From an uncultured Gammaproteobacteria bacterium (lineage in GTDB: Bacteria; Patescibacteriota; Patescibacteriia; UBA9934), in contig CAYNYL010000003.1 in assembly GCA_964401485.1 (NCBI GenBank), positions 18,365 through 82,364 on the forward strand: a stretch of 64,000 nucleotides of DNA. Direction: 5' to 3'. Below, one piece after another: positions 6,388-59,867 of the stretch (its first letter is position 1; each line of letters begins with the position of its first letter). Both the position numbers and the translations under genes were made by a program. Under the pieces are notes generated by a model that was not told the DNA's origin, searched no databases, and saw nothing but the letters and a program-made list of their open reading frames with translations.

Positions 6388-9300
6388 ATGCTAAAAAACG
6401 GGCTTACTATGCCTATCTACGAACAACTCGCCCGCTTCTTATTCCGTAATGGAAAATTGATCTTTTTCGCTTTTGCTCTTCTTGTGGGGCTTGGATCATT
6501 TGCCCTAACGCAAATCGAACGACAGGGATTCCCTGCGATCTTAGTTAACGTTGCCTCTGTCCAGGTCGTTTATCCGAACGCTGACGCTGAAACCGTTGAG
6601 CGTGAGATTTTGATTCCGCTTGAGGCGGAAATCGAAGCGATTGATACGGTTCTTGAATATCAAGGATCGGCGGGAGATAACTTCGGACTTTTAATCGTTA
6701 CGTTTGATCAAAACGCGGATATTGACGAGGCGGTTGCGGAGCTCCGTAACTCGGTATCGAGCGTTACGCTTCCTTCTGGCGCAAAAGAAGCTGAAGTTGA
6801 GTTGTTTTCGGTTAATGGCGTTGGAGAGTTTATTGTTGCGTTAACGGGCGACGGAGATCCGATGCGACTCTACGAAAAAGGACTTGAATTTGAGACCTCG
6901 CTTCAGGGAGTTGATGGAGTAAAGAAGGTGACAGCCATGAACCCGCTTACCCCGGAGATTCGGATTACGTTTGACGGAAAGGCGCTCGCGGAGGCTGGTC
7001 TTACGCGAAGTGCCGTTGAGGCGCAACTTCAGGGCGCAAATTTCGTTGCGCCTGCCGGATCAATTATTGAGGACGAAACGCAAGTGAATATTGCCGTTGC
7101 GAGCCGGCTCACGACTCTCGGCGAGCTCAAGGCGTACACGCTCGCTCCAGGCGTCACTCTTGATGACGTTGCGAAAATTGAAGAAGTTGTAAACAACAAC
7201 GATTACTATAACCGTGTTGGTATTGAGTCGAAGAAGGGAGATGTCGCTGTTTCCCGTGCTCTTCTTTACGGTATTGCGATTGACGCGGATGCCGATATTC
7301 TTACGGTTGATGAGTCGCTTAAAACGGCGCTCGAAACGGTGCGAGACAATGAGCCAAAAAATTCGAAGTACGGCTACGAGATTGTGTACTCGCAGGCTGA
7401 TTCGACACGACAACAAATTTCGGAAATCTCACAAAGTATGTTTGGTGCGCCGATTGATGCGTTCGGACCGCTCGCGTTCCTCGGATACATTTTTGGTGGA
7501 CTTCTTCTCGTTGTCATCATGCTTTTTGTACTGATGAACCTTCGTGTTGCGATTCTCGCAGCGCTCGCGATCCCGCTTTCGCTTTTCGCGACGCTAGGCT
7601 ACTTGTATTTCGTAGGCATTGATCTTAATACGCTCGTTCTTTTCTCAATGGTGCTCGTCATCGGTCTCGTTATCGATCCAACGATCGTATTCATGGAGTC
7701 GATGCAACGCTATATCGATGAAGGAATGTCGCCAGAGGACGCGGGAATTAAGACCCTTAAAACGGTTGGACTCGGAGTATTTCTCGCTGTGGCGACGAAC
7801 GCGATCGTCTTTATTCCGTTTGGAGTTGTTTCTGGATTCTTCGGAGAAATTATTAAATATATTCCAGCGACCGTTATCCCTTCGATGATTGCAAGTATCG
7901 TAATTCCGGTCTTGTTCTTCATCCCGATTGGAGCGAAAATTCTCCGTCCTCGAAAGGGTGTGGTTGATGTTGACGGTAGTCTTTCGACGACGTGGGCGGT
8001 TAGCCGTGGTCTCAAACGCCTCCTCGACGGTCTCCTCAAAAAAGGAAAACTTGCCGGCGCGATTCGAGTTGTCGTCTTTGTTGGACTTATGGCGCTTCCG
8101 CTTGTTGTCGGAGGTGTCATGATTCAAACGAAAACGGTTGAAGTTGTGCAATTTGCGGCAACGGACGATTCGGATTTCATGACGATTTCGGGAGATCTTC
8201 CGGATGAATGGTTGTTTGATAAATCGGTGTACGAGGTTGTGGTTCCGGTTCAAGACATTGTTGCTGAGTACGAGGAAGTTCAATCGTTCTTCTACTACGA
8301 ACAGCGTGGAAATGATTTTACCCTCTTTGTTACGCTCGATCCGATCAAGGAGCGACAAGACGCGGAACTCATGACGGCGACAGAGCTTGCCGAGGCGCTC
8401 AACAAGGACTTTGCGTCTCAAAAATTTGACGCCGAAATTAAGGCAGTTGTTTCAAGCGATGGACCTCCTCAAGAGCAGTTCCCAGTTAAACTACGCGTCT
8501 ATCTTGACGACGAAGCGACTCTTGCTGATACGGTCGAGGCGATGCGTTCATATCTTTCGGATGTCGAAGGAGTGGATGTTGTAAACGATACGCTATCAAA
8601 GAAAACAACCGGAGGAACGGTTGTCTACGAGGTTGATTCTGCGAAGGGTGTGCCGGCCGGTCTTGTGTACGGCGCGCTTGCTGAGCGAATTGCGGATCGA
8701 GAACTCGGGGAGCTTACGCTTGGATCGACGAAGTATGAAATTCATTCGCAATATACGGGCGAAAAAGTAAATGATTTCTTGGAACTCGAAGTACTTCCGG
8801 GCCTTCCGCTTGGCGCGGTTGCGACCGAAACGACGCTTGAGTCAAAGACAATTGCTCGATCGAACGGAAAGCGTTACGCGGAAATTTCCGCCTCAGTTCT
8901 TAAGGACGCCGATTCTGCGTTAATCCAGGCAGAGTTTAAGGAGTTTGCGGAGCAGTACGCAAAAGAAAATGACCTTCCGCTGAACGCGCTCGACTTTAAG
9001 GGGGAAGCGGATTCGATCGCCGAGTCGTTCAACGATTTGTTCGTAGCGCTCGCGATTGCCATCTTTATCATGTACGCGCTCCTCGTAATCTTCTTCCGTT
9101 CATTCTTCGAGCCGTTCATCATTCTCTTCGCGATCCCGCTTGGACTTGTCGGTGTATTCCTTGCGATTGGTGCAACGACGGGCCAACTTGGATTCCTCGA
9201 GCTTCTCGGAGTTGTAACGATGACGGGAATTGTTGTAAACGTAACGATCCTCATTATCGACTACGCGAACCAGCTCAAACGAGAAGGGAAGTCGGTTGAA

Positions 9301-9543
9301 GAAGCAATTTCTACGGCAATCGCTCTTCGATTCCGACCGATCGTGCTTACACAGATGACGGCGTTTGGAAGTCTAATCCCGCTCGTGTTCCTTTCGCCGT
9401 TCTGGCAAGGGCTCGCCGCGTCGATTATCTTCGGTATCATTTTCTCCGGACTTCTCTCGCTTATCTCGACGCCGATCCTATACCTCTGGGCCTACTCGGT
9501 GCCGGAGATGGCAAGAAACCTTATTCGAAGATTCCGATCCTAA
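6388..9543 (+). CDS. RND superfamily efflux transporter permease (AcrB-like, 12 TM)
   Basis: 1051 aa with two large periplasmic loops and two TM bundles. The second bundle has an RND-like pattern (FAIPLGLVGVFLAIGATTGQLGF...VVNVTILIIDYANQ). Confidence 0.8.
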   Translation: MLKNGLTMPIYEQLARFLFRNGKLIFFAFALLVGLGSFALTQIERQGFPAILVNVASVQVVYPNADAETVEREILIPLEAEIEAIDTVLEYQGSAGDNFGLLIVTFDQNADIDEAVAELRNSVSSVTLPSGAKEAEVELFSVNGVGEFIVALTGDGDPMRLYEKGLEFETSLQGVDGVKKVTAMNPLTPEIRITFDGKALAEAGLTRSAVEAQLQGANFVAPAGSIIEDETQVNIAVASRLTTLGELKAYTLAPGVTLDDVAKIEEVVNNNDYYNRVGIESKKGDVAVSRALLYGIAIDADADILTVDESLKTALETVRDNEPKNSKYGYEIVYSQADSTRQQISEISQSMFGAPIDAFGPLAFLGYIFGGLLLVVIMLFVLMNLRVAILAALAIPLSLFATLGYLYFVGIDLNTLVLFSMVLVIGLVIDPTIVFMESMQRYIDEGMSPEDAGIKTLKTVGLGVFLAVATNAIVFIPFGVVSGFFGEIIKYIPATVIPSMIASIVIPVLFFIPIGAKILRPRKGVVDVDGSLSTTWAVSRGLKRLLDGLLKKGKLAGAIRVVVFVGLMALPLVVGGVMIQTKTVEVVQFAATDDSDFMTISGDLPDEWLFDKSVYEVVVPVQDIVAEYEEVQSFFYYEQRGNDFTLFVTLDPIKERQDAELMTATELAEALNKDFASQKFDAEIKAVVSSDGPPQEQFPVKLRVYLDDEATLADTVEAMRSYLSDVEGVDVVNDTLSKKTTGGTVVYEVDSAKGVPAGLVYGALAERIADRELGELTLGSTKYEIHSQYTGEKVNDFLELEVLPGLPLGAVATETTLESKTIARSNGKRYAEISASVLKDADSALIQAEFKEFAEQYAKENDLPLNALDFKGEADSIAESFNDLFVALAIAIFIMYALLVIFFRSFFEPFIILFAIPLGLVGVFLAIGATTGQLGFLELLGVVTMTGIVVNVTILIIDYANQLKREGKSVEEAISTAIALRFRPIVLTQMTAFGSLIPLVFLSPFWQGLAASIIFGIIFSGLLSLISTPILYLWAYSVPEMARNLIRRFRS

Positions 9544-9611
9544 ATCAAGAGCGCTCCTTCCGGGGCGCTTTTGACTTTGGCTAAAATGAGCTTATTTTAT
9601 ATCATTTTACC

Positions 9612-9640
9612 TTGACTTTTTGGCCACAATATGCTATATT
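9612..9640 (+). promoter_or_regulatory. Sigma70-like promoter for the DGR target gene (TTGACT-17-TATATT, with extended -10 TGC)
   Basis: cTTGACTttttggccacaatatgcTATATT. Perfect 17-nt spacer. Confidence 0.55.
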
Positions 9641-9775
9641 AACTCCTGTACTTTTCATCTGCGCTAAGATTGGTTATAGCAAAAAGTGGCTTGATAATAG
9701 GCTATTTCTCGCTATGACCAATTCGGTCTACAGCTCCACCTCGGATAGAGGGATGCTAGAAAAAAGGATGACGCC

Positions 9776-10399
9776 ATGACCCAGATCATGACCCCATCGA
9801 AGACCACGACCGACGGCCAGATCATCAAGGCCACCGCGAACTTCCGAGCCATGCTCGAGAAGCATGCGGGGGAGTTCTCCGCCGATGCCGTGCAAACGGT
9901 GCTCGGCGATCCGGGACTTGCTGGCGAGATGCTCGCGGTGCTTCGTAGACGTGTCGAGGCCATCTCGAACATCATCGTTCGCAAGGTCACGGTGAATCGC
10001 ACCCGCTCCGCGCAGGATGCCCTCAAGGCCACGGGTCGTGTCATGTACACAGACTCCGCAGTCGTGGAAGCGGTGCCGAGCGGCGAGGGCGAGGAGGCGG
10101 AGATCTGCCTCTTCAAGCTCGACCTGTCGAAGCGCGGCGGATGGATCTCGGATGACGATCTCGAGAAAGAGTTCGATCTCCGAGGCCTGAAGCCCGTCGA
10201 CCCGTTCGCGCTCGCTGCGCTGAACGAGGCCGATCCGGCCTTCGCTGACGAGAAGCCGAACGCGACCCACTGGAAGGATGTGCAGGGCGACTGGTGCTAT
10301 GCGGTCTTCTACGGGTGGTTCGGCGAGCGCCGGGTTTCTGTCAACCGTCACGACTACGATTGGTACGGCAGCTGCTGGTTCGCCGGCGTCCGCAAGTAG
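9776..10399 (+). CDS. DGR variable (target) protein with C-terminal VR, likely CLec-type fold
   Basis: 207-aa ORF, markedly GC-rich and GC3-biased. Its last ~35 codons (DWCYAVFYGWFGERRVSVNRHDYDWYGSCWFAGVRK) form the VR that pairs with the downstream AAC-rich TR. Confidence 0.8.
   Translation: MTQIMTPSKTTTDGQIIKATANFRAMLEKHAGEFSADAVQTVLGDPGLAGEMLAVLRRRVEAISNIIVRKVTVNRTRSAQDALKATGRVMYTDSAVVEAVPSGEGEEAEICLFKLDLSKRGGWISDDDLEKEFDLRGLKPVDPFALAALNEADPAFADEKPNATHWKDVQGDWCYAVFYGWFGERRVSVNRHDYDWYGSCWFAGVRK
10290..10395 (+). repeat. DGR variable repeat (VR) at the 3' end of the target gene, ending in a GC-rich IMH-like segment
   Basis: About 105 bp aligned to TR at 10724..10828. 18 mismatches, 17 of them where TR has A. 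The last ~20 bp (ggttcgccggcgtccgcaa) are identical. Confidence 0.85.
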
Positions 10400-10449
10400 C
10401 CCTTCGCTCTCGAGTTCTAGGGGCTTTTGTCCCTTTGGACTTAGCTCTT

Positions 10450-10489
10450 GGCCCCGTTCCGATTCCTCGGGACGGGGCCTGTGTTTTTC
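10450..10489 (+). terminator. Hairpin downstream of VR (GGCCCCGT...ACGGGGCC plus T-run): target-gene terminator and/or DGR homing-associated stem-loop
   Basis: 8-bp perfect GC-rich stem followed by tgtgtttttc, about 50 nt after the stop. Confidence 0.55.
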
Positions 10490-10723
10490 AAATTAAGTTA
10501 TAATAACTTTGGTAGTAGGTGAGTAGGCGAACGGTCAAGGCTTTTCGCTACCGAATCCAGTATCCATGCGTTTCGAGTATTCGCGGCTATGGTTTCGAAT
10601 AGAGTGTCGCATGCAGACTCTTCAAAAATGAAGCTACTTGGTACGGGATTTTATGGTATTGTGATGCCGAATGCGATTCAGCTTCGAGAAATTCTAGGGG
10701 CGGTGGCACAGAAGGAATCCTGT

Positions 10724-10828
10724 ACAAATGCTATGCGATCTTCAACAGGTGGAACGGCGAGCGCCAGGTCAATGTCAACCGTAACGACAACGATTGGAAC
10801 GACAACTACTGGTTCGCCGGCGTCCGCA
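10724..10828 (+). repeat. DGR template repeat (TR)
   Basis: Invariant copy of VR. In the VR frame it encodes KCYAIFNRWNGERQVNVNRNDNDWNDNYWFAGVR. It is very rich in AAC (Asn) codons, the DGR hallmark. Confidence 0.85.
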
Positions 10829-10835
10829 ACTCGCT

Positions 10836-11237
10836 TCATTTCTCTCCGGCGTTTGTCGGAGAGTTTTGTTTGGTGAGTTGGCCGTTCCAACCGCCCAGCA
10901 TTTTGCCGACCTCATCTAGTTTGATCGAAAGAGCGATATATTTCTTATTGTCGAGCGACTTTGTCTCCCAGAGAATTAAAATCAGGACGCGTAGAGTGTC
11001 CATCTTTTTAATAGCGAGGCGCACATAAGGGTGCTTTTCGATAGGTGAGAGAAAACTGGCGGCAGATAGCGCTTCTATCGTCTCAATGAATAAAATGTCG
11101 ACCCGCTGACCGAGCGAGTGTCGGTGAGTCTTTGGGAGTTCGCGGTGATAGTTGTGCCAAATGATGTAGGACTCCTTGGTTTTACTTAGGACTGGCAAAA
11201 TTTTGTAAGGGGGGGGTACTATAGGGGTACGATTCAT
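10836..11237 (-). CDS. avd: Accessory variability determinant (Avd)-like four-helix-bundle protein
   Basis: 133 aa. YHRELPKTHRHSLGQRVDILFIETIEALSAASF matches the 4HB/Avd pattern. C-terminal LDEVGKMLGGW resembles the Bordetella phage Avd EVGRILGSW. Lies between TR and RT but on the opposite strand. Confidence 0.7.
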   Translation of the reverse strand: MNRTPIVPPPYKILPVLSKTKESYIIWHNYHRELPKTHRHSLGQRVDILFIETIEALSAASFLSPIEKHPYVRLAIKKMDTLRVLILILWETKSLDNKKYIALSIKLDEVGKMLGGWNGQLTKQNSPTNAGEK

Positions 11238-12224
11238 ATGCGTTTTGATTGTCCTTATGATGATATCATTTTAGTCGAAAATCTTCTTGAGGCATGGAAA
11301 GAATTTGTTCGGGGAAAGCGGTCGCGAGAGGATATCTTGCGGTTCGAGCGGGACCTCATGGGAAATATTCTTTTGCTTCACGATGAACTTAAAGCGAAGA
11401 CTTACACCCACTCCCCGTATCACCACTTTAAAATCACGGATCCAAAATTAAGGGATATTCACAAGGCTTCTGTTCGGGATCGGCTTTTACATCACGCGAT
11501 TCACCGTAAGTTGTCTCCCTTTTTTGAGAAACGATTTATTTCGGATTCGTATTCTTGCCAGAATGACAAAGGAACGCATCGTGCTTTACGGCGATTTAGA
11601 AAATTTGTAAACAAATGCTCTAAAAACTCAACGAAGACGGTTTGGGTTTTAAAATGCGATATTCGGAAGTTTTTTGCGAGCATCGATCAAAGGAGACTGC
11701 TGACGATCTTGGAAAGGACGATTGAAGATAAGGAATTACTTTGGCTGATTGCTCGGGTTGTTCGAAGTTTTTATGTTACGACCCCGGGTATCGGACTACC
11801 GCTCGGCAACCTCACCTCGCAACTATTTGTGAATGTGTATATGAACGAATTTGACCGGTTTGTAAAACATCATCTAAAGGCTCGCTACTATATTCGCTAT
11901 GCGGATGATTTCGTTGTGCTTGATACCGATCGTTTTAAATTGATCGAGACGCTGTTGAAAATGAACACATTTCTTAATGAAGAGTTGGAACTGTCACTTC
12001 ATCCGAATAAGACGTTTATCCAAACCGTCGCGTCAGGTGTGGATTTTCTTGGGTGGGTACATTTTTCTGATCATCGCGTCGTTCGTGGCACAACAAAACG
12101 GAGAATGCTTTCTAAGCTTCGGGATGGTGTGAAAAATGAAACACTACAGTCGTATCTTGGACATTTACGGCATGGAAATAGTCGGAAATTACTCGCGATA
12201 CTTCAAGATCGATTTATTTCTTGA
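11238..12224 (+). CDS. DGR reverse transcriptase
   Basis: YADDFVV catalytic motif. GLPLGNLTSQLFVNVYM is the DGR-specific IGxxxSQ-type motif. FKITDPKLRDIHKASVRDRLLHHAIHRKL, SYSCQNDKGTHRA and CDIRKFFASI align with bRT-like RT motifs 1 to 3. Confidence 0.9.
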   Translation: MRFDCPYDDIILVENLLEAWKEFVRGKRSREDILRFERDLMGNILLLHDELKAKTYTHSPYHHFKITDPKLRDIHKASVRDRLLHHAIHRKLSPFFEKRFISDSYSCQNDKGTHRALRRFRKFVNKCSKNSTKTVWVLKCDIRKFFASIDQRRLLTILERTIEDKELLWLIARVVRSFYVTTPGIGLPLGNLTSQLFVNVYMNEFDRFVKHHLKARYYIRYADDFVVLDTDRFKLIETLLKMNTFLNEELELSLHPNKTFIQTVASGVDFLGWVHFSDHRVVRGTTKRRMLSKLRDGVKNETLQSYLGHLRHGNSRKLLAILQDRFIS

Positions 12225-15483: not shown

Positions 15484-15858
15484 ATGATCTACATCCATCA
15501 AGTTCAGTGTCACGCCCTCGAGGAATTCTCGGCGGGATTCGAAGCCCTTCCCAAGTCGCGGGCGTACTGGTTACGCCACGAGCTTAGGGAGAAGGTGCGC
15601 GAGGTAACTCTTGAGCGAACGGATCCGTATCCGTGCATCGAGGACTTCGTCCTTGCGTCCCTCGTTCCGGAGTGCGAAGCGTCCTGCTACGCATTCGCAA
15701 ACGGGACGGGGGTCGGTATCACCGTTCGGTACAGCGATGCGGAACTCGCGCAGATTGACGAGGCGCTTCTGTGGCGACTCCGACTTCTGCGAAAAGTACC
15801 GCTCAATCTCTGTCCGGAGTGGTGGATGGTGCGCGATACCATCCTGACGCTCACGTAA
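15484..15858 (+). CDS. Hypothetical GC-rich protein (124 aa)
   Basis: ORF with an AGGAG RBS, GC3-biased codons, and Cys pairs (CHALEE...CIEDF...CEASC). No assignable family. Confidence 0.5.
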   Translation: MIYIHQVQCHALEEFSAGFEALPKSRAYWLRHELREKVREVTLERTDPYPCIEDFVLASLVPECEASCYAFANGTGVGITVRYSDAELAQIDEALLWRLRLLRKVPLNLCPEWWMVRDTILTLT

Positions 15859-27218: not shown

Positions 27219-27941
27219 CTAACGGACGTCCTTGAAGGCGGACTGGAGCAAGCCCTGTAAGGCGATCGCGATGTTCGAGGCGAGCTCCTCTCTGCGCGCT
27301 GGGTCTTTGCGTAGTGAGGCGTGGATCTCGAGTTGGACCGCATCGAGTCCCGCCTCGCCGTACTTGTACCCGAATGACCGGACGATGTACCCACCTCGAA
27401 AACTACTCTTCACGCCGAGCATCTCATCGGGCGAGTAGGCGATCGTGTAGTCGGTTTTCAGTGGGGCGGCGAGGAGGTAGTCGAGGTGGTTTGGCGCCGT
27501 TCGGCCCTGATCCGTCCCAAAGATCAGTTGCAACCCTCGAGGCGTTGTCGTTGGTTCGTTCGCAAATCCGTGGATGTCGAGCAAGAACGCGAATCCGTGG
27601 TTACGGATTGTGCGTTCGATCTGGGCGGAGAGAACTCCGTGGTACTCGCGCCAACTTCCCTCGAACCCCTCGACCCATGCCTGCGGGCCGGGCTTGCGAT
27701 TCGGGTCGGCGTGCCGTCGATCAAGGGTGAAGCTGACAAGCGTCGGAGTGATCTCTCGCTTGTGAAGTTCTTCCATGACCGAGAACGTGAGTTCTCGCGT
27801 ATGGTCGTCGAGCCCGGTTCCTCCCTCCGCAATCCACTTTGCGACATGCGGGAGAATTGGCTTGTCATCGAATCTCTCCGTCCCATCGTGCGGAACGGAC
27901 AGGACGATCGGGCACGAGCCCTCTAAAAGAACGGTATGCAT
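27219..27941 (-). CDS. N-formylglutamate amidohydrolase (FGase)-family zinc hydrolase, GC-rich
   Basis: LSVPHDG near the N-terminus and AFLLDIHGF resemble the FGase PHxG/LLDLHS motifs. Confidence 0.5.
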   Translation of the reverse strand: MHTVLLEGSCPIVLSVPHDGTERFDDKPILPHVAKWIAEGGTGLDDHTRELTFSVMEELHKREITPTLVSFTLDRRHADPNRKPGPQAWVEGFEGSWREYHGVLSAQIERTIRNHGFAFLLDIHGFANEPTTTPRGLQLIFGTDQGRTAPNHLDYLLAAPLKTDYTIAYSPDEMLGVKSSFRGGYIVRSFGYKYGEAGLDAVQLEIHASLRKDPARREELASNIAIALQGLLQSAFKDVR

Positions 27942-28573: not shown

Positions 28574-29071
28574 CTAGTGCGTCGTGCGACGCGGAGGTCC
28601 CATCGGGACGGTGATGCCGAGAAGGATTCCGGCGCCACCACCGGCCATCAAAAGATTGCCGGTCATGGCGTATGGCTCGAGGTCGTGGCGGTACTGCCAC
28701 TGTTCGAGCTCGGAGAGCGTGGTGGCCTCGGCGCGGTACTTGAGCTGGGCGCTGGCCGAGAGGGCAAGGCCCGTGATGAACGCGGCGCCGGAGACGGCCG
28801 TGACGACGCGGTTCGTTCGGCCTATCCGGTACGGCTCGCTTTCGGGGCCGACCTCGACGAGGCGGGGGACGAGCGCCCAGTCTTCGCTGGCGCAGATCAC
28901 GGTCCTTCCGGTCCAAGCCACCGTTTCACCCGTCTCGAGTTGCTGGACGGCCGGTTCGAGCTGGAGCTCGGGACTCGCGAGGGCTGGGGTGGCGAAGAAC
29001 ACGGAAAGGAGCGTGACGAACAGATAAGCGGGCATGAAAGCTCCAATACTTAGTCTTTGGCGGAATACCAA
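28574..29071 (-). CDS. Hypothetical secreted/membrane protein in a GC-rich island
   Basis: Signal-like N-terminus (MPAYLFVTLLSVFFATPALA) and a C-terminal hydrophobic stretch. The choice of strand and frame among several GC-driven ORFs is uncertain. Confidence 0.35.
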   Translation of the reverse strand: MVFRQRLSIGAFMPAYLFVTLLSVFFATPALASPELQLEPAVQQLETGETVAWTGRTVICASEDWALVPRLVEVGPESEPYRIGRTNRVVTAVSGAAFITGLALSASAQLKYRAEATTLSELEQWQYRHDLEPYAMTGNLLMAGGGAGILLGITVPMGPPRRTTH

Positions 29072-36540: not shown

Positions 36541-37992
36541 TTGGAGGTTGTCATGCATAGAGGCTTGTCCCTGGCCGGTTCGACCGGTCGAAGTGGGATC
36601 TCGCGTCCACGAGTGTCGAGATACTCGCTCGCGTCGAACCCGCCCCCATCGCTCGAAGCGGTTCTTCGAGCGATCCTGGAGAAGGATTGCTTCCGCGACA
36701 GTGGGGCGATTCGCTCCTTCGTGCGGAAAATCGAGCGCACGTACGATGAGAAGGGGCCTGCCGACGACCTCGTGCGGTTTCTCTCGAACGAGGGGTTCAC
36801 TTCGAATGTTGCCGAAGGCATTCGTGTACAGCGTGAGAAGATTCGCGCGCATCTCGGGATGCCTGAGCCGAGCTCGGCGTCGCGATCCTCGCGAGCGATT
36901 CCGATCATCCCGTCGGTTCTCGCCAAGGCGGCAGCCGAAGGGGTGCAGAAGCCGAAGGTCGAGCCCGTCGAGAGTCCCGATAGTCAGTCGGGCGGTAGTG
37001 CCGATGGCGCTACCGTTACAACCCCCACTCACCTGTTCTTCTTCACGCCCGGTGAGTATACAGATTTCGAGTTCGTGCGTGACGCGTTCTTCGACGAGAA
37101 GACGCGTCTCGTAACCGTGCCACTTCGCGACGATACGAAGCCCATTCGGTTGTTCGCCGATCGGCTCGTTGACGCCGGCGTGTGCGCTCCCCTTGATCGT
37201 GGGGAGGGCTCCGCGCAGGGTGAGGTCGCGTACGAGGTGCTCGTATCGTTCAAGGCGTGGCACATCGAGCGGATCTCGGAACGTGCGGATCGTGCCGTGG
37301 CGCCGGAGATCCTCAAGGTCTTCAACGCGCTCCACGAGTACGCCTCGCAGGGCCCGTTTCGCTACGCGGATACGCTCGTCAAGCAGATCGCGGAGCGTTT
37401 CGAGATGAAGGAGGGGACCGTTCGAAGTGTCTTCTTCGGCTTCCGGGAACAGCCACTCGTCAGCGAGCCGCACAAGCGACTAGGGGCATTCCTGATCCTC
37501 GACCGTTCGGCACGTGAACAGACGGTCGTCGTGTGCGTCAAGGGTTTCGAGGGCCATCGGTTGGTTCCCGGAACGCAACGGTTTGTGACGAGGAGTCACA
37601 CGGTGCGGTCCACTCCGGCCATTCCCCGATCGGCAAATCCGGTAGTGTCACCTGCGCCGGTCGTCGAATCGGACGACACTGTGGAAGACGAGGGGACGTC
37701 GACGCCGGAACTCGGGCGCCTTCTCGAGGCGCGCCCCGACGTGCGTGAGGCCATCACCGAAGAGGCACTCGCGATTGCGGATCGGATCCGGTCCGGTGGG
37801 GAGCGTACCTATACTCTCGCCGAACTCGTCGAGCGTCGTCGAGTTCTCCTTGGAGGGATCGCCACCCTCAACGAGTTGATCGCTGAGAAGGAGCGCGAGA
37901 TCCGCGAGGAGGAGGCCCGTCTCGAGCGCGAGGAAGCCGAGCTTCTCGCGAGACTCGAGGCCGTTCGTGCGAGGAAGGCGAAGCTCGAGTAG
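36541..37992 (+). CDS. Hypothetical GC-rich protein with C-terminal coiled coil (483 aa)
   Basis: Strong promoter and RBS. GC3-biased. C-terminal EKEREIREEEARLEREEAELLARLEAVRARKAKLE. Several overlapping antisense ORFs were judged spurious. Confidence 0.55.
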   Translation: MEVVMHRGLSLAGSTGRSGISRPRVSRYSLASNPPPSLEAVLRAILEKDCFRDSGAIRSFVRKIERTYDEKGPADDLVRFLSNEGFTSNVAEGIRVQREKIRAHLGMPEPSSASRSSRAIPIIPSVLAKAAAEGVQKPKVEPVESPDSQSGGSADGATVTTPTHLFFFTPGEYTDFEFVRDAFFDEKTRLVTVPLRDDTKPIRLFADRLVDAGVCAPLDRGEGSAQGEVAYEVLVSFKAWHIERISERADRAVAPEILKVFNALHEYASQGPFRYADTLVKQIAERFEMKEGTVRSVFFGFREQPLVSEPHKRLGAFLILDRSAREQTVVVCVKGFEGHRLVPGTQRFVTRSHTVRSTPAIPRSANPVVSPAPVVESDDTVEDEGTSTPELGRLLEARPDVREAITEEALAIADRIRSGGERTYTLAELVERRRVLLGGIATLNELIAEKEREIREEEARLEREEAELLARLEAVRARKAKLE

Positions 37993-49956: not shown

Positions 49957-50940
49957 CTATTGCTTTTTGGCCCGCAAAAGGCGCTTCAGGACCCGCTTGA
50001 ACCACTTCTCGACGGTCAGGCCCTTGCTGTTGAGGACGAGATCGAAGACGAAGTGGACAAAGGTCGGCAAGCTGACGCGGTCAAGGCTCAAGTCGAGTGG
50101 GTTCACGACGCGATGCGTCGTGGGTGCGATCTTGAGTCCGAGCGCCGCGAGTCGCTCGACTACGATCTCGAAGGCGGCGAGCATCATGCCGGTGTTGATG
50201 GCGACGACGTCGGCTCCTTCCGGAATCACGATCCCGCCCCAGACTCTCCGCTTCATGCCGCGACGCGGCAGGAAGAGTTCGAGATCTCTGACGACGGGGA
50301 GTACGGTGAGGACGTTGATGTCTTCGTGCTTCGCGGAGCGTACCGAGCCGGGCTTGACGTTCGGGTACTTGTCGAGGGCCGGGTAGTAGATCGCACGGAA
50401 CACCGTCTCGGCGCCGTAGATCGCATTCGTGAGCAGGCCTCGTTCGAGCTTGAGGAAGACCTCGAAGCACGCGAGAACGCGCTCGCTGACCGCGATCGTT
50501 TGGCGCAGGTACTCAAGCGCGAGATCCTTGAACTCAGACACTTCCTTCGGGAAGATGTTCGGACCGTACACCCAGTTCGCGGGATTCAGGGGGTTGCGCT
50601 CATCGCGCACCATCCAGAATTCCTTGAGATCGGGGCAGTCACTACTTGCTGCGATCTCGCTTCCGTACTCGGCGAAACCGCGTTGCCTCAAGCCATCGAG
50701 GGCGATGTACTGCATCAGGGTGAGGCGCGGAAGCGCCATGACTTTGCGAAAGGCCCTCTCGGTATCGTTGATCAGGGTACGGTCGATCTTGTGGTTTTCT
50801 ACCAGGAGGAATCCATCCTGGCACACGGCACGGACGACCTGTTCACATCGCTCTTCGTTTCCAGGCGCCCACGGGTCGTCGGGAAGGTTGACGACCTGAA
50901 TTTCGTGTTGGAATACGGCGTTTGCTCGGGGAGCGACCAA
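49957..50940 (-). CDS. 2OG-Fe(II) oxygenase superfamily protein (isopenicillin N synthase-like), GC-rich
   Basis: DIOX_N-like N-terminus and KHEDINVLTVL (an HxD Fe-binding motif). The start codon is uncertain, apparently TTG. Confidence 0.6.
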   Translation of the reverse strand: MVAPRANAVFQHEIQVVNLPDDPWAPGNEERCEQVVRAVCQDGFLLVENHKIDRTLINDTERAFRKVMALPRLTLMQYIALDGLRQRGFAEYGSEIAASSDCPDLKEFWMVRDERNPLNPANWVYGPNIFPKEVSEFKDLALEYLRQTIAVSERVLACFEVFLKLERGLLTNAIYGAETVFRAIYYPALDKYPNVKPGSVRSAKHEDINVLTVLPVVRDLELFLPRRGMKRRVWGGIVIPEGADVVAINTGMMLAAFEIVVERLAALGLKIAPTTHRVVNPLDLSLDRVSLPTFVHFVFDLVLNSKGLTVEKWFKRVLKRLLRAKKQ

Positions 50941-59209: not shown

Positions 59210-59779
59210 CTAGGGGATCACCCACCTTGAGCTACGCTGGTTCCCGATCTGGACGACGATCCCGCGCGATTCGAGCTCACGAAGGATGGCCAGTGTCTCC
59301 GGGTACGGGTGGTCGATCGTTTTCGCGATGGCCGATCCCGAAAGCCCGAGGGCGTCTTTGATCAAGAGATCGACGATCTGTGTTTCGTGGTCGGGGGGCT
59401 TGACCTTGAGGACGAACTTTTCGCGAATCGCGAAGAAGCTCTGCCGTCCCTCGATCGTATCGAACTGGCCGCGACCCGAGGCCTTGATCGCCTCTTGGAT
59501 CGCGGTTCGCGCGATGAAGATGTCGAGCGCTTCTCGCACGTCTTCCTCAAGCGCGTTCGTCAGCTGATTCTGCGCGTTCATGCACAGAAGGTCGTCGAGA
59601 ACCGGGAACAGCCTTGCGACGAACTCGTCAAGAAGGCAGGCCTTCTTGACCGTCGTCCTGACAAAGAGCGCACGAAGCGCTCCATCAGCAACCATTCTAC
59701 GAAGGACGGCAGCTGATTGTGGGAATGCTGTGAGAGCAATCCCGCAAACGCCGTCGACCGTATGGGCGTTGTGAATCAT
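59210..59779 (-). CDS. Hypothetical GC-rich protein with C-terminal winged-HTH-like tail
   Basis: Start re-anchored to MIHNAHT (AGGAGG RBS, TTGACT-17-TAGTTT promoter at 59809..59837). C-terminal LGLSGSAIAKTIDHPYPETLAILRELESRGIVVQIGNQRSSRWVIP resembles a wHTH. Confidence 0.45.
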   Translation of the reverse strand: MIHNAHTVDGVCGIALTAFPQSAAVLRRMVADGALRALFVRTTVKKACLLDEFVARLFPVLDDLLCMNAQNQLTNALEEDVREALDIFIARTAIQEAIKASGRGQFDTIEGRQSFFAIREKFVLKVKPPDHETQIVDLLIKDALGLSGSAIAKTIDHPYPETLAILRELESRGIVVQIGNQRSSRWVIP

Positions 59780-59867
59780 TGATTCCTCCTGTCCAAAAGG
59801 GACCAGATAAACTACCATAAATCACCGAAAAAGTCAATGTTTACGAGGTGTGGTAAAATCGAGCTAC

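Follow-up and report, generated by a model that had tools for sequence, protein, structure and literature searches.

DGRs reach their highest abundance in Patescibacteria, and a survey by Paul and colleagues in 2017 is said to have been the first of the DGRs of Patescibacteria/CPR. DGRs restricted to this group were classed as "clade 2" (Roux 2021), and their targets were described as small proteins without a transmembrane segment or known domain (Roux 2021, PMC8144416). The DGR analyzed here is likewise chromosomal in a Patescibacterium, its reverse transcriptase (RT) clade is Patescibacterial, and its target protein is also small, with neither a transmembrane segment nor a known domain. The subject of this analysis is the composition of the target gene, especially at third codon positions (GC3).

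A high GC3 as a hallmark of small Patescibacterial DGR targets is previously unreported within the literature examined. A compositional split between the target and RT/avd is mentioned neither in Roux 2021 (PMC8144416), in which the terms "GC content" and "codon usage" do not occur, nor in Wu 2018, where GC is compared for the whole DGR versus the host alone, nor in the other literature matches. Exchange of target units between genomes, independently of the DGR machinery, is likewise unmentioned in the same literature. Roux 2021 (PMC8144416) does suggest intragenic recombination of target domains.

The DGR cassette

The window, i.e., the whole 64-kb stretch of DNA that was analyzed, contains a single template repeat (TR)/variable repeat (VR) pair, and no further remote VRs of this TR were found within it. 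The target (variable protein) gene is located at positions 9776-10399 on the plus strand and encodes 207 aa (GC 0.63, GC3 0.83). Its last ~35 codons correspond to the VR (10295-10395, plus strand), whose 3′ end, CTGGTTCGCCGGCGTCCGCAA, is the same as in the TR (10729-10829, plus strand). This GC-rich, IMH-like segment is shared without change by both repeats, and divergence begins beyond it. The TR is rich in adenine (27 of 101 bases, versus 13 adenines in the VR), and 14 of the 15 mismatches between the repeats occur at TR adenines. Across the clade, TR adenines are nearly confined to codon positions 1 and 2.

The putative accessory variability determinant gene, avd (10836-11237, 133 aa, GC3 0.55), is on the minus strand, opposite to the target, TR and RT. 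Its start codon abuts, back to back, that of the RT gene (11238-12224, plus strand, 328 aa, GC3 0.41). The Pfam bAvd match has an E-value of 3.4e-9 and a score of 37.6 bits, versus a cut-off of 40 bits, and the position and sequence of avd are kept in ~45 related cassettes. The RT matches the RVT_1 profile (E = 3.4e-22) and is 24-40% identical to phage DGR RTs, Bordetella BIP-1 included. It has a conserved LPLGNLTSQ sequence, which we take to be the DGR-typical I/LGxxxSQ motif. Among the contigs searched, this RT clade occurs on Patescibacterial contigs only. The closest named match to AtpD is that of Ca. Uhrbacteria, at 83% identity. Neighboring the target are genes for an AcrB-family transporter and a pseudouridine synthase, together with the avd/RT pair. 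A search of the window with Rfam detected four tRNAs, and the cassette matched no known RNA family.

A site at 9612-9640 on the plus strand (TTGACT, 17-nt spacer, TATATT, extended-10 TG) lies ~135 nt upstream of the target start codon and is a candidate promoter of the target transcription unit, although promoter-like sites were recognized by consensus match alone and the 4 sites found compare with 3.3 expected by chance. A terminator-like hairpin and T-run (10450-10489, plus strand; 13 pairs, 10 of them G-C) lies 50 nt past the target stop codon. Another hairpin with a T-run (10842-10873, plus strand), recognized by its pattern, is directly 3′ of the TR and overlaps the 3′ end of the inverted avd; it may mark where the TR RNA ends or form a structured element within it.

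In the sister strain L173, the part of the target ORF outside the VR differs from that of the window at only 2 of 519 nt, whereas 28 of 101 nt differ in the VR and 12 of 101 in the TR. At non-A positions, the VR in each of these two strains follows that strain's own TR. Because of this agreement, and because 14 of 15 mismatches are at TR adenines, we regard the DGR as real and active, with mutagenic homing that, judging from these comparisons of sequences, is ongoing.

The target protein is predicted to have a three-helix N-terminal domain (residues 13-64) followed by a compact C-type-lectin fold (residues 67-207), in a structure model with a pLDDT of 90.7. The reading frame is backed by 519 full-length homologues. 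The VR-bearing part is thus predicted to adopt the C-type-lectin fold that the initial annotation had proposed to look for. At the level of sequence, a Pfam profile search of the protein found no family at E ≤ 0.01, FGE-sulfatase and DUF1566 included. The lack of a Pfam match and an N-terminus that is not hydrophobic agree with the earlier view that there is no signal peptide or recognizable N-terminal domain. Overall, the target is a small, cytoplasmic-looking protein whose final ~35 codons are rewritten from the TR.

Composition of the target gene within the window

The initial annotation described the target as GC-rich and GC3-biased, unlike its own RT and avd, and this contrast is clear: GC3 is 0.83 in the target versus 0.41 in the RT, 0.55 in avd and 0.56 ± 0.08 in the remaining genes. 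The target ORF has a GC content of 0.631 (GC1 0.625, GC2 0.442, GC3 0.827), and its third positions are 0.05 A, 0.46 C, 0.37 G and 0.12 T. In a 150-nt sliding window, GC is 0.61-0.67 in the interior of the ORF, versus 0.37-0.41 just upstream and ~0.45-0.52 downstream. Among the 55 window genes compared, the target has the highest GC3 and the RT the lowest. The other genes have a mean GC3 of 0.561 (sd 0.081, median 0.545), so that the target is an outlier with z = 3.3, or 4.4 by a robust estimate. Its third-position GC skew is -0.12, while all but one of the 30 other plus-strand genes have a positive skew. With such a GC3 and a skew against the strand trend, the target is atypical in composition in the sense used for horizontally acquired genomic islands.

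The anticipated bimodality of per-gene GC3 was not cleanly present, even though the target is the extreme value. The distribution has one mode and a tail of seven genes with GC3 of at least 0.68. Apart from the target, the tail consists of genes at 28574-29071 (minus strand, 0.79), 49957-50940 (minus, 0.79), 36541-37992 (plus, 0.73), 27219-27941 (minus, 0.72), 59210-59818 (minus, 0.71) and 15484-15858 (plus, 0.70). Nor is the codon adaptation of the target low: with the whole window as reference, a CAI-like index is 0.748 for the target versus a mean of 0.730, and it is avd (0.615) and the RT (0.665) that are codon-atypical. The target draws more exclusively on codons that are common in the window.

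The high GC3 of the target also accounts for a 207-aa antisense ORF (9728-10351) overlapping it, which we considered as a possible gene and rejected as a shadow. TTA, CTA and TCA, which read as stops on the opposite strand, amount to ~1.3 codons per gene, as counted from the family's codon fractions, so that the antisense frame does not stay open, and TCA is not specially avoided.

Distribution of the GC3 excess

The excess is not peculiar to this window. At 62 genome loci, target GC3 exceeds that of the host ORFs by 0.226 on average, and at 53 of them no other ORF ranks above the target; the background gene sets are longest-ORF calls rather than curated annotation. At the genome loci, the RT (-0.04) and avd (-0.02) are close to host GC3. 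Dereplicated clusters of homologues from other Patescibacteria have a mean excess of +0.209, with 46 of 48 positive (p = 1e-13). Further target families that this RT clade serves behave similarly, with an excess of +0.19 versus the RT (30 of 31 positive) and of +0.21 versus the host (19 of 20 positive), and at least nine unrelated small target families sharing this clade exhibit the excess. More than 100 independent contigs exhibit the pattern. The excess is even larger in orphan targets, which lack an RT, avd and TR in their vicinity (+0.28, versus +0.19 for the others). By contrast, long multi-domain targets served by this RT clade have an excess of just +0.05 (n = 5), and the excess is absent from 11 phage DGRs, in which target and background GC3 differ by -0.008.

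The GC3 bias is a conserved, long-maintained trait of the target family that is common to other small families of the RT clade. Given the phage DGR targets, it is not a feature of DGRs in general.

The size of the excess varies with the host. Host GC3 ranges from 0.20 to 0.79, and the target sits ~0.2 to 0.45 above it, with a regression slope of 0.52 for target on host GC3. The excess is greatest in AT-rich hosts. In GC-rich hosts it is sometimes small or negative, yet most of these hosts are still exceeded by their targets (for example, 0.89 versus 0.72 in L026, and 0.89 versus 0.79 in L071).

GC-rich DNA carries long shadow ORFs, and in three loci (L081, L085 and L095, which were left out of the statistics) the automatic choice of the longest VR-containing ORF gave a wrong frame. 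One could therefore ask if the bias itself is an artefact of a wrong frame, an assembly chimera or amino-acid composition. We give this idea virtually no credence in view of the full-length homologues, the confident structure model, the number of contigs and the presence of the bias within each codon family.

Exchange of the target unit

Several observations show that the target transcription unit has been repeatedly exchanged between genomes and cassettes, apart from avd and RT. Pairwise distances of targets are nearly uncorrelated with those of RTs (r = 0.17), while those of avd and RT are better correlated (r = 0.46). Blocks of ~0.8 kb, extending from promoter to terminator, have 86-93% DNA identity between contigs with unrelated flanks. 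In L018 and L038, the targets are 87-93% identical in DNA, whereas the RT proteins are only 57% identical. The N-terminal module of the target swaps independently, a mosaic pattern is present within the window's own species, and near-identical target units occur in hosts with a background GC3 anywhere between 0.27 and 0.71. In avd and RT, meanwhile, composition and strand bias follow the host.

Signatures of mobility, namely an integrase or transposase, a tRNA insertion site, or flanking direct repeats other than TR/VR, were not found at the target, and the closest tRNA is 20 kb away. Carriage of the target by phages was considered and rejected, as a search of IMG/VR yielded no relative.

The initial annotation regarded a target acquired separately from its diversifying machinery as unusual. 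That the target has a separate history is upheld by the movement of target units apart from avd and RT. A recent or one-off foreign import is not: the excess recurs in 46 of 48 clusters, sister strains carry the gene at the same locus, synonymous sites are near saturation and recent changes are near balance, the last two being the reasons why we reject a recent import.

A broader version of this idea is that target copies keep arriving from donor lineages rich in GC and have yet to ameliorate, with no special force involved. It would explain the near-identical units in hosts with very different GC3 and the dependence of the excess on host composition. The whole unit, its non-coding ends included, is GC-richer than host intergenic DNA, and other GC3-rich genes in the window, an FGase-family gene and a DIOX_N dioxygenase-like gene, look acquired. 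Nonetheless, we consider this explanation quite improbable. The bias is kept even though the family's synonymous sites are close to saturation: four-fold-site identity among family members is 0.39, versus ~0.31 expected by chance, a rough estimate at the same base composition. On terminal branches, we counted 66 AT-to-GC and 99 GC-to-AT synonymous changes, while free amelioration should give ~3:1 to 8:1 by our estimate. Even in hosts with GC3 of 0.20-0.31, the recent changes are near balance (22 AT-to-GC versus 30 GC-to-AT). Target silent sites are, on these counts, near substitution equilibrium. In addition, GC-rich donors would be needed for several unrelated target families, GC-rich hosts such as L026 and L071 are themselves exceeded, codon choice is Patescibacterial (CTC over CTG), and sister strains have the target at the same locus (the same site in L173 and L174).

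Codon-level features of the bias

The bias favors C-ending codons and avoids A-ending codons. The four-fold sites of the target family have C at 1.75 times, G at 0.94 times, A at 0.5 times and T at 0.76 times the background level, and GGG, CGG, ACG and GCG are not elevated. The fraction of TTC is 0.78 versus 0.37 in the background, and that of ATC is 0.74 versus 0.34. Host genes matched for GC3 have 0.11 more G and 0.06 less C at four-fold sites than the targets do. The bias is visible inside each synonymous codon family, and the preference for CTC over CTG in targets is a Patescibacterial habit. The GC3 excess is bounded by the ORF, ending at the start codon. GC2 is unchanged in targets, and GC1 is raised by 0.06 to 0.10. 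At its non-coding ends, the exchanged block exceeds other intergenic DNA by 0.05-0.07 GC. Third positions gain three to four times as much (+0.21) as these non-coding parts do. We also considered a Rho-utilization-type RNA with C over G, but rejected it because G equals or exceeds C overall along the target ORF.

These features bear on GC-biased gene conversion, in which repeated replacement of the target unit, through homologous recombination at a hot spot, by alleles of other strains and lineages, with heteroduplex repair that favors G/C, would raise GC, and codon preference would set the split of C over G. Such a process fits the L018/L038 recombination, the ~0.8-kb blocks in unrelated flanks, the mosaic in the window's own species and the swaps of the N-terminal module. 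The GC-richer non-coding ends, the raised GC1 and the lack of an excess in phage DGR targets also fit. Recombination has reportedly been linked to GC3 in bacteria by Lassalle et al. in 2015. However, the effect in the targets is asymmetric between the strands and depends on the codon, G-ending four-fold codons show no rise, GC2 is flat, and the difference between third positions and the non-coding parts is large. To our knowledge, the GC3 effect in the target is far larger than any reported for gene conversion in bacteria. We thus view gene conversion as the main cause as unlikely, though less so than repeated import. The slightly GC-rich non-coding ends, the raised GC1 and the direct evidence of recombination count against the codon-level explanation that we favor below, in that biased gene conversion or donor effects would account for them just as well.

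The depletion of A could instead be connected to the mutagenesis of adenines by the DGR, if stray reverse transcription erodes silent adenines or if selection keeps the framework free of adenine, much as immunoglobulin framework codons steer clear of hypermutation hot spots. Third positions inside the TR and VR are 0.03 A, 0.54 C, 0.25 G and 0.18 T, and the ranking C > G > T > A is the same outside the VR. Third-position A is lowest beside the VR and rises in the 5′ direction from 0.11 to ~0.2, the spacer directly after the VR is A-poor (AT skew -0.44), and the inverted avd of this clade makes antisense transcripts across the target conceivable. Yet the depletion extends to T, and G shows no increase even though the observed A-to-N spectrum favors it. 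Recent changes exhibit no A-to-N excess outside the VR; per base, changes originating at A are second rarest (those at G being rarer) and are nearly all A-to-G transitions. Moreover, orphan targets are more biased, and phage DGR targets lack the effect. Given the absent A-to-N excess, the depletion of T and the orphan targets, we reject a mutational ratchet at adenines, and we judge adenine mutagenesis in either form very unlikely, more so than import.

Proposed selection on codons

The initial annotation had raised selection on the VR-containing mRNA as an alternative to separate acquisition. This possibility remains viable and is now favored in the form of selection at the codon level. Our preferred but tentative explanation, to which we would give slightly less than an even chance, is that codon-level selection together with a weaker, recombination-linked push toward GC lies behind the persistent bias. 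The main cause would be selection on synonymous codons within the ORF that favors NNC, as well as NNG where A and G are the alternatives, and that disfavors A-ending codons and G-ending four-fold codons. On top of this, there could be a weaker push toward GC, blind to coding and linked to how often the target unit recombines or is transferred. Selection might serve the efficiency or accuracy of translation, or reliable decoding in many hosts.

The genes expected to be most highly expressed complicate this picture. In 14 target-bearing contigs, genes for EF-Tu, S12, S7, L2, S3, L11, L14, GroEL and DnaK have a GC3 of 0.458, versus 0.442 for the background and 0.669 for the target. Their C at four-fold sites is 0.256, versus 0.248 and 0.46, respectively. 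As these genes are hardly biased, translational selection on the target would have to exceed that on the most highly expressed genes, and we reject translational selection by the host as a full explanation. A search of the literature yielded no expression values for the target genes. The codon deviations of the target do share the direction of the weak EF-Tu/ribosomal-protein signature, and match the strong signature in L027. The agreement with EF-Tu is limited to direction, i.e., C over T at two-fold codons and avoidance of G at four-fold sites. The small excess in long multi-domain targets is left unexplained by codon selection.

A more speculative proposal, which seems to us rather doubtful, is that small-target units of Patescibacteria form a pan-lineage pool in which they are freely exchanged, and that silent sites in these units are kept away from the equilibrium of every host by a dedicated force. 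This force could be unusually strong GC-biased gene conversion at a natural recombination hot spot, or selection for a portable set of codons that is safe under hypermutation. The portable set would be NNC-rich and adenine-poor, and can be likened to the codon bias of immunoglobulin frameworks. If true, this proposal would constitute a new link among targeted hypermutation, gene mobility and codon usage.

Whatever its cause, the finding concerns the small, domain-less DGR targets of Patescibacteria. The compositional signature, combined with promoter-to-terminator blocks, is a simple marker for such targets, including orphans without an RT. In evolution, the variable protein behaves as a module separable from the mutagenic machinery: a single RT clade is shared by at least 10 target families, and one target allele pairs with TRs that differ by 12%. 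The target gene, held above host GC3 yet near substitution equilibrium, is also a rare case in nature in which codon selection, biased gene conversion and transfer could be told apart in bacteria.

Comparison with known systems

Compared with highly expressed, translationally optimized genes, the target has a codon usage that is not common to the EF-Tu and ribosomal-protein genes of the same contigs. It resembles the recombination-linked elevation of GC3 reportedly described by Lassalle et al. in 2015, in that a recombining gene has a raised GC3 and non-coding GC is slightly increased. By contrast, the effect in the target is several-fold larger than the one reportedly described, is specific to C among four-fold sites, and does not extend beyond the ORF.

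Like classical genomic islands, the target is compositionally distinct from its neighbors and is transferred between genomes. However, it is GC-richer than its host rather than AT-richer, and consists of one ~0.8-kb transcription unit. Unlike such islands, it has no integrase, tRNA or flanking direct repeats, occupies the same site in sister strains, and has a composition that is not decaying.

With Mtd of Bordetella phage BPP-1 and TvpA of Treponema denticola, the target shares the C-type-lectin fold, TR adenines at codon positions 1 and 2, and a GC-rich, IMH-like end. It differs from them in its much smaller size (207 aa) and three-helix N-terminus, in lacking a Pfam match to FGE-sulfatase or DUF1566, a signal peptide and a phage-tail context, and in the inverted avd of its cassette. 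Finally, whereas the phage DGR targets that we tested, Mtd-like proteins among them, have no GC3 excess, the window target clearly does.

The DGR cassette

The GC-rich island in the window is the coding sequence of the variable protein of an active DGR. This target gene (9776-10399, plus strand) contains a variable repeat (VR, 10295-10395) that has 15 differences from the template repeat (TR, 10729-10829), 14 of them at TR adenines; the final 21 nt of the VR, which are GC-rich, are the same in the TR. The single non-adenine mismatch, at window position 10770 (C in the TR, T in the VR), is synonymous (GTC/GTT), and the 46 non-A mismatches found over 79 TR/VR pairs exhibit no clear bias. The reverse transcriptase gene (RT, 11238-12224, plus strand) matches RVT_1 (E = 3.4e-22), and the accessory gene avd (10836-11237, minus strand) matches bAvd slightly under the Pfam cut-off. 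The DGR is genuine. Its host is a Patescibacterium, and the AtpD protein of the window shares 83% identity with its Ca. Uhrbacteria counterpart.

A promoter-like site occurs at 9612-9640, and a strong terminator-like hairpin (10450-10489) lies 3′ of the target. Directly 3′ of the TR, a hairpin with a T-run (10842-10873) lies over the 3′ end of the oppositely oriented avd, and the TR RNA may be terminated or structured there. The avd gene is inverted, an arrangement conserved in this RT clade, and the avd and RT start codons stand back to back at 11237/11238 (cat/atg) with zero intergenic space; they overlap by 2 nt in two comparison loci (L038 and L080). Given these abutting starts, either each of the two has its promoter within the other, or RT is expressed from a long transcript shared with target and TR.

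Composition of the target in the window

The target ORF (207 aa) has a GC content of 0.631 (GC1 0.625, GC2 0.442, GC3 0.827), with third-position frequencies of A 0.05, C 0.46, G 0.37 and T 0.12. In 150-nt sliding windows, GC is 0.61-0.67 inside the target, 0.37-0.41 directly upstream and about 0.45-0.52 downstream. After replacement of shadow ORFs caused by high GC, the window has 55 genes. As the initial annotation had claimed, the target is GC3-biased, ranking first in this set (others' mean 0.561, s.d. 0.081; z = 3.3, or 4.4 by a robust estimate), and its neighbors are AT-richer: avd has a GC3 of 0.55, and RT, at 0.41, is the lowest in the window.

The GC3 distribution is not the cleanly bimodal one that had been expected; a single mode tails off into seven genes with values of 0.68 or more, and the target is at the extreme. 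Similarly, the suggested departure from normal codon usage holds for GC3, but not for a CAI-like index, which is normal in the target (0.748; mean 0.730) and low in avd (0.615) and RT (0.665). The retroelement genes are thus the codon-atypical ones, and the target draws more exclusively on the commoner codons of the window.

Six more window genes are GC3-rich (0.70-0.79): 27219-27941(-), 28574-29071(-), 36541-37992(+), 49957-50940(-), 59210-59818(-) and 15484-15858(+). They include an FGase-family protein and a DIOX_N dioxygenase-like protein, both in the GC3 tail, as well as a 165-aa protein whose N-terminus resembles a signal peptide and a protein of 483 aa lacking a Pfam match. No homologues of the six were found among 160 Patescibacterial loci, and they look like separate acquisitions.

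The third-position GC skew of the target (-0.12) is contrary to the replication-strand trend, in which G exceeds C in 29 of 30 other plus-strand genes and C exceeds G in 24 of 24 minus-strand genes. Cumulative GC skew climbs over the whole window (1-64000). Given this rise and the near-perfect split of the strands, the window belongs to a single replichore, in which the plus strand is the leading strand. A 207-aa antisense ORF (9728-10351, minus strand) covers most of the target (9776-10351). We rejected an overlapping antisense gene, since the ORF is not conserved and the target family as a whole does not maintain an open frame there; the ORF arises because A is scarce at third positions of the target.

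Recurrence and anatomy of the bias

We found 519 homologues of the target protein (about 207 aa, 50-93% identity) and retrieved 80 genome loci, nearly all from Patescibacteria. Many of the loci derive from metagenome bins. Sixty-two of them have five or more background ORFs (longest-ORF calls); there, target GC3 exceeds the background by 0.226 on average, the excess is positive in 97%, and the target is the top-GC3 ORF in 53; RT (-0.04) and avd (-0.02) lie near the background. Dereplication at 80% amino-acid identity leaves 48 clusters with a mean excess of +0.209 (46 positive, p = 1e-13). Target GC3 tracks that of the host (range 0.20-0.79) with a slope of 0.52 and an intercept of 0.45. The bias is therefore a property of the target family, not private to this genome, and the chance that it is an artefact is negligible. 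In one locus (L016), tandem target-family copies (146-688 and 1099-1716) occur upstream of a single avd-RT pair.

The same RT clade pairs with at least ten target families, including that of the window. Among 80 metagenome loci (L081-L160) whose RTs are 56-64% identical to the window RT, and so as near to it as those of the genome loci, the window's family occurs in only one; TR/VR detection revealed at least nine other families, mostly of 150-250 aa. Outside the VR, their GC3 is 0.19 above that of their own RT (30 of 31 positive) and 0.21 above host ORFs (19 of 20). When no more than 230 aa precede the VR, the excess averages +0.215; in longer targets it averages +0.054.

Third positions across the window's family are A 0.145, C 0.40, G 0.27 and T 0.19, against a background of 0.24, 0.24, 0.23 and 0.29. 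The bias is specific to C. At four-fold sites, C is 1.75 times the background, G 0.94, A 0.5 and T 0.76, and NNC is favored over NNT everywhere (target versus background: TTC 0.78 and 0.37, ATC 0.74 and 0.34, CGC 0.56 and 0.28), with no rise of GGG, CGG, ACG or GCG. Against Patescibacterial genes matched for GC3, the target is lower in G by 0.11 and higher in C by 0.06 at four-fold sites. Third positions in the TR/VR rank alike (C 0.54, G 0.25, T 0.18, A 0.03), and the minimum of third-position A adjoins the VR. The GC3 excess is bounded by the ORF, being near-uniform over it and stopping at the start codon.

Orphan targets and exchange of the target unit

The bias is independent of an adjacent DGR. 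Twenty orphan targets, which lack a nearby RT, avd or TR, show a larger excess than the others (+0.28 versus +0.19). Adenine mutagenesis by the DGR could in principle deplete A, but these orphans are more biased, T is depleted as well, and an excess of A-to-N changes is not seen outside the VR; we regard this explanation as very improbable.

Three orphans lacking avd, TR and an intact RT nearby occur upstream of rpsL-rpsG-(fusA)-tuf (L048 10001-11253, L060 10001-11741 and L005 252-5380), directly so in L048 and L060. RT gene fragments between target and rpsL suggest that L060 is a decayed DGR. In three other loci (L039 11535-12476, L063 11445-11791 and L079 11474-12420), RT has an in-frame stop or is fragmented beside an intact target, so that these DGRs are probably inactivated.

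The movement and recombination of the target unit are not tied to those of avd and RT. Pairwise distances hardly correlate between target and RT (r = 0.17; avd-RT 0.46), and the N-terminal and C-type-lectin modules of the target are themselves uncoupled (r = 0.15). The target ORFs of L018 and L038 share 87-93% DNA identity, whereas their RTs share 57% protein identity. In seven contig pairs, the sole strong homology is a block of 700-860 bp that begins about 20-120 nt before the target ORF and ends about 60 nt after it; outside the block the sequences are either unrelated or identical at about 70%, and the hosts' background GC3 is 0.27-0.71. No target relatives were found on viral contigs.

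The window's own species is mosaic at the cassette, as two sister strains show (L173 1-1535 and L174 1-2023, compared with window 9117-11130). Relative to the window, L174 has 98-100% identity in the upstream acrB-type gene but 82-88% over the whole cassette. In L173, the non-VR target is identical at 517 of 519 nt (99.6%), whereas the TR matches at 89 of 101 and the flanks, TR and avd are 78-93% identical; one target allele is thus paired with two TR-avd modules. The VR of each strain matches its own TR at non-A positions, and by this sequence comparison both DGRs are active.

Maintenance of the bias

The proposal of separate acquisition therefore stands insofar as the target has a history apart from avd and RT, but not as a recent import. 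That GC-rich donors have repeatedly supplied the gene, without any special force acting on it, seems quite improbable. Four-fold-site identity among family members is 0.39, about that expected by chance (0.31, a rough estimate for the base composition), and terminal-branch synonymous changes, polarized approximately by parsimony, are near balance (66 AT-to-GC versus 99 GC-to-AT). The ratio is alike in hosts with a GC3 of 0.20-0.31, although free amelioration would give roughly 7:1 by a rough estimate. The bias has been long maintained.

The target family has a GC1 elevated by 0.06-0.10 and an unaltered GC2, and its non-coding flanks (120 nt on the upstream side, 70 nt on the downstream side) exceed other intergenic DNA in the loci by 0.05-0.07 GC. 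Biased gene conversion is an unlikely main driver. We tentatively favor selection among synonymous codons as the main force upholding the bias, alongside a lesser GC component, blind to coding and tied to recombination or transfer. Translational selection in the host was tested with EF-Tu, ribosomal-protein, GroEL and DnaK genes from 14 contigs that also carry the target, and was rejected as the full explanation. These genes have a GC3 of 0.458 (background 0.442) and C at 0.256 of four-fold sites (background 0.248), and share with the target only a mild C-over-T preference at two-fold codons and a mild G avoidance at four-fold sites. In one genome (L027), genes of the EF-Tu/ribosomal-protein type carry a target-like signature.

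Comparison with known DGRs

The cassette belongs to the Patescibacteria-restricted DGR clade of Roux et al. 2021, who described CPR targets as lacking transmembrane or known domains. In phage DGRs with an annotated avd, this gene is co-directional with RT, whereas it is inverted in the window's clade. Eleven phage DGRs from diverse hosts have target GC3 values close to the background (-0.008) and to RT (-0.03); the GC3 bias is general to the clade's small targets, but not to DGRs overall. The GC content of whole DGRs relative to the host has been taken as a sign of horizontal transfer (Wu et al. 2018). In the DGR papers examined, among them Roux et al. 2021 and Wu et al. 2018, neither a compositional split between target and RT nor a target codon bias is reported. 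On this literature, the DGR itself is of a known type, and the compositional and modular behavior of its target appears to be new.
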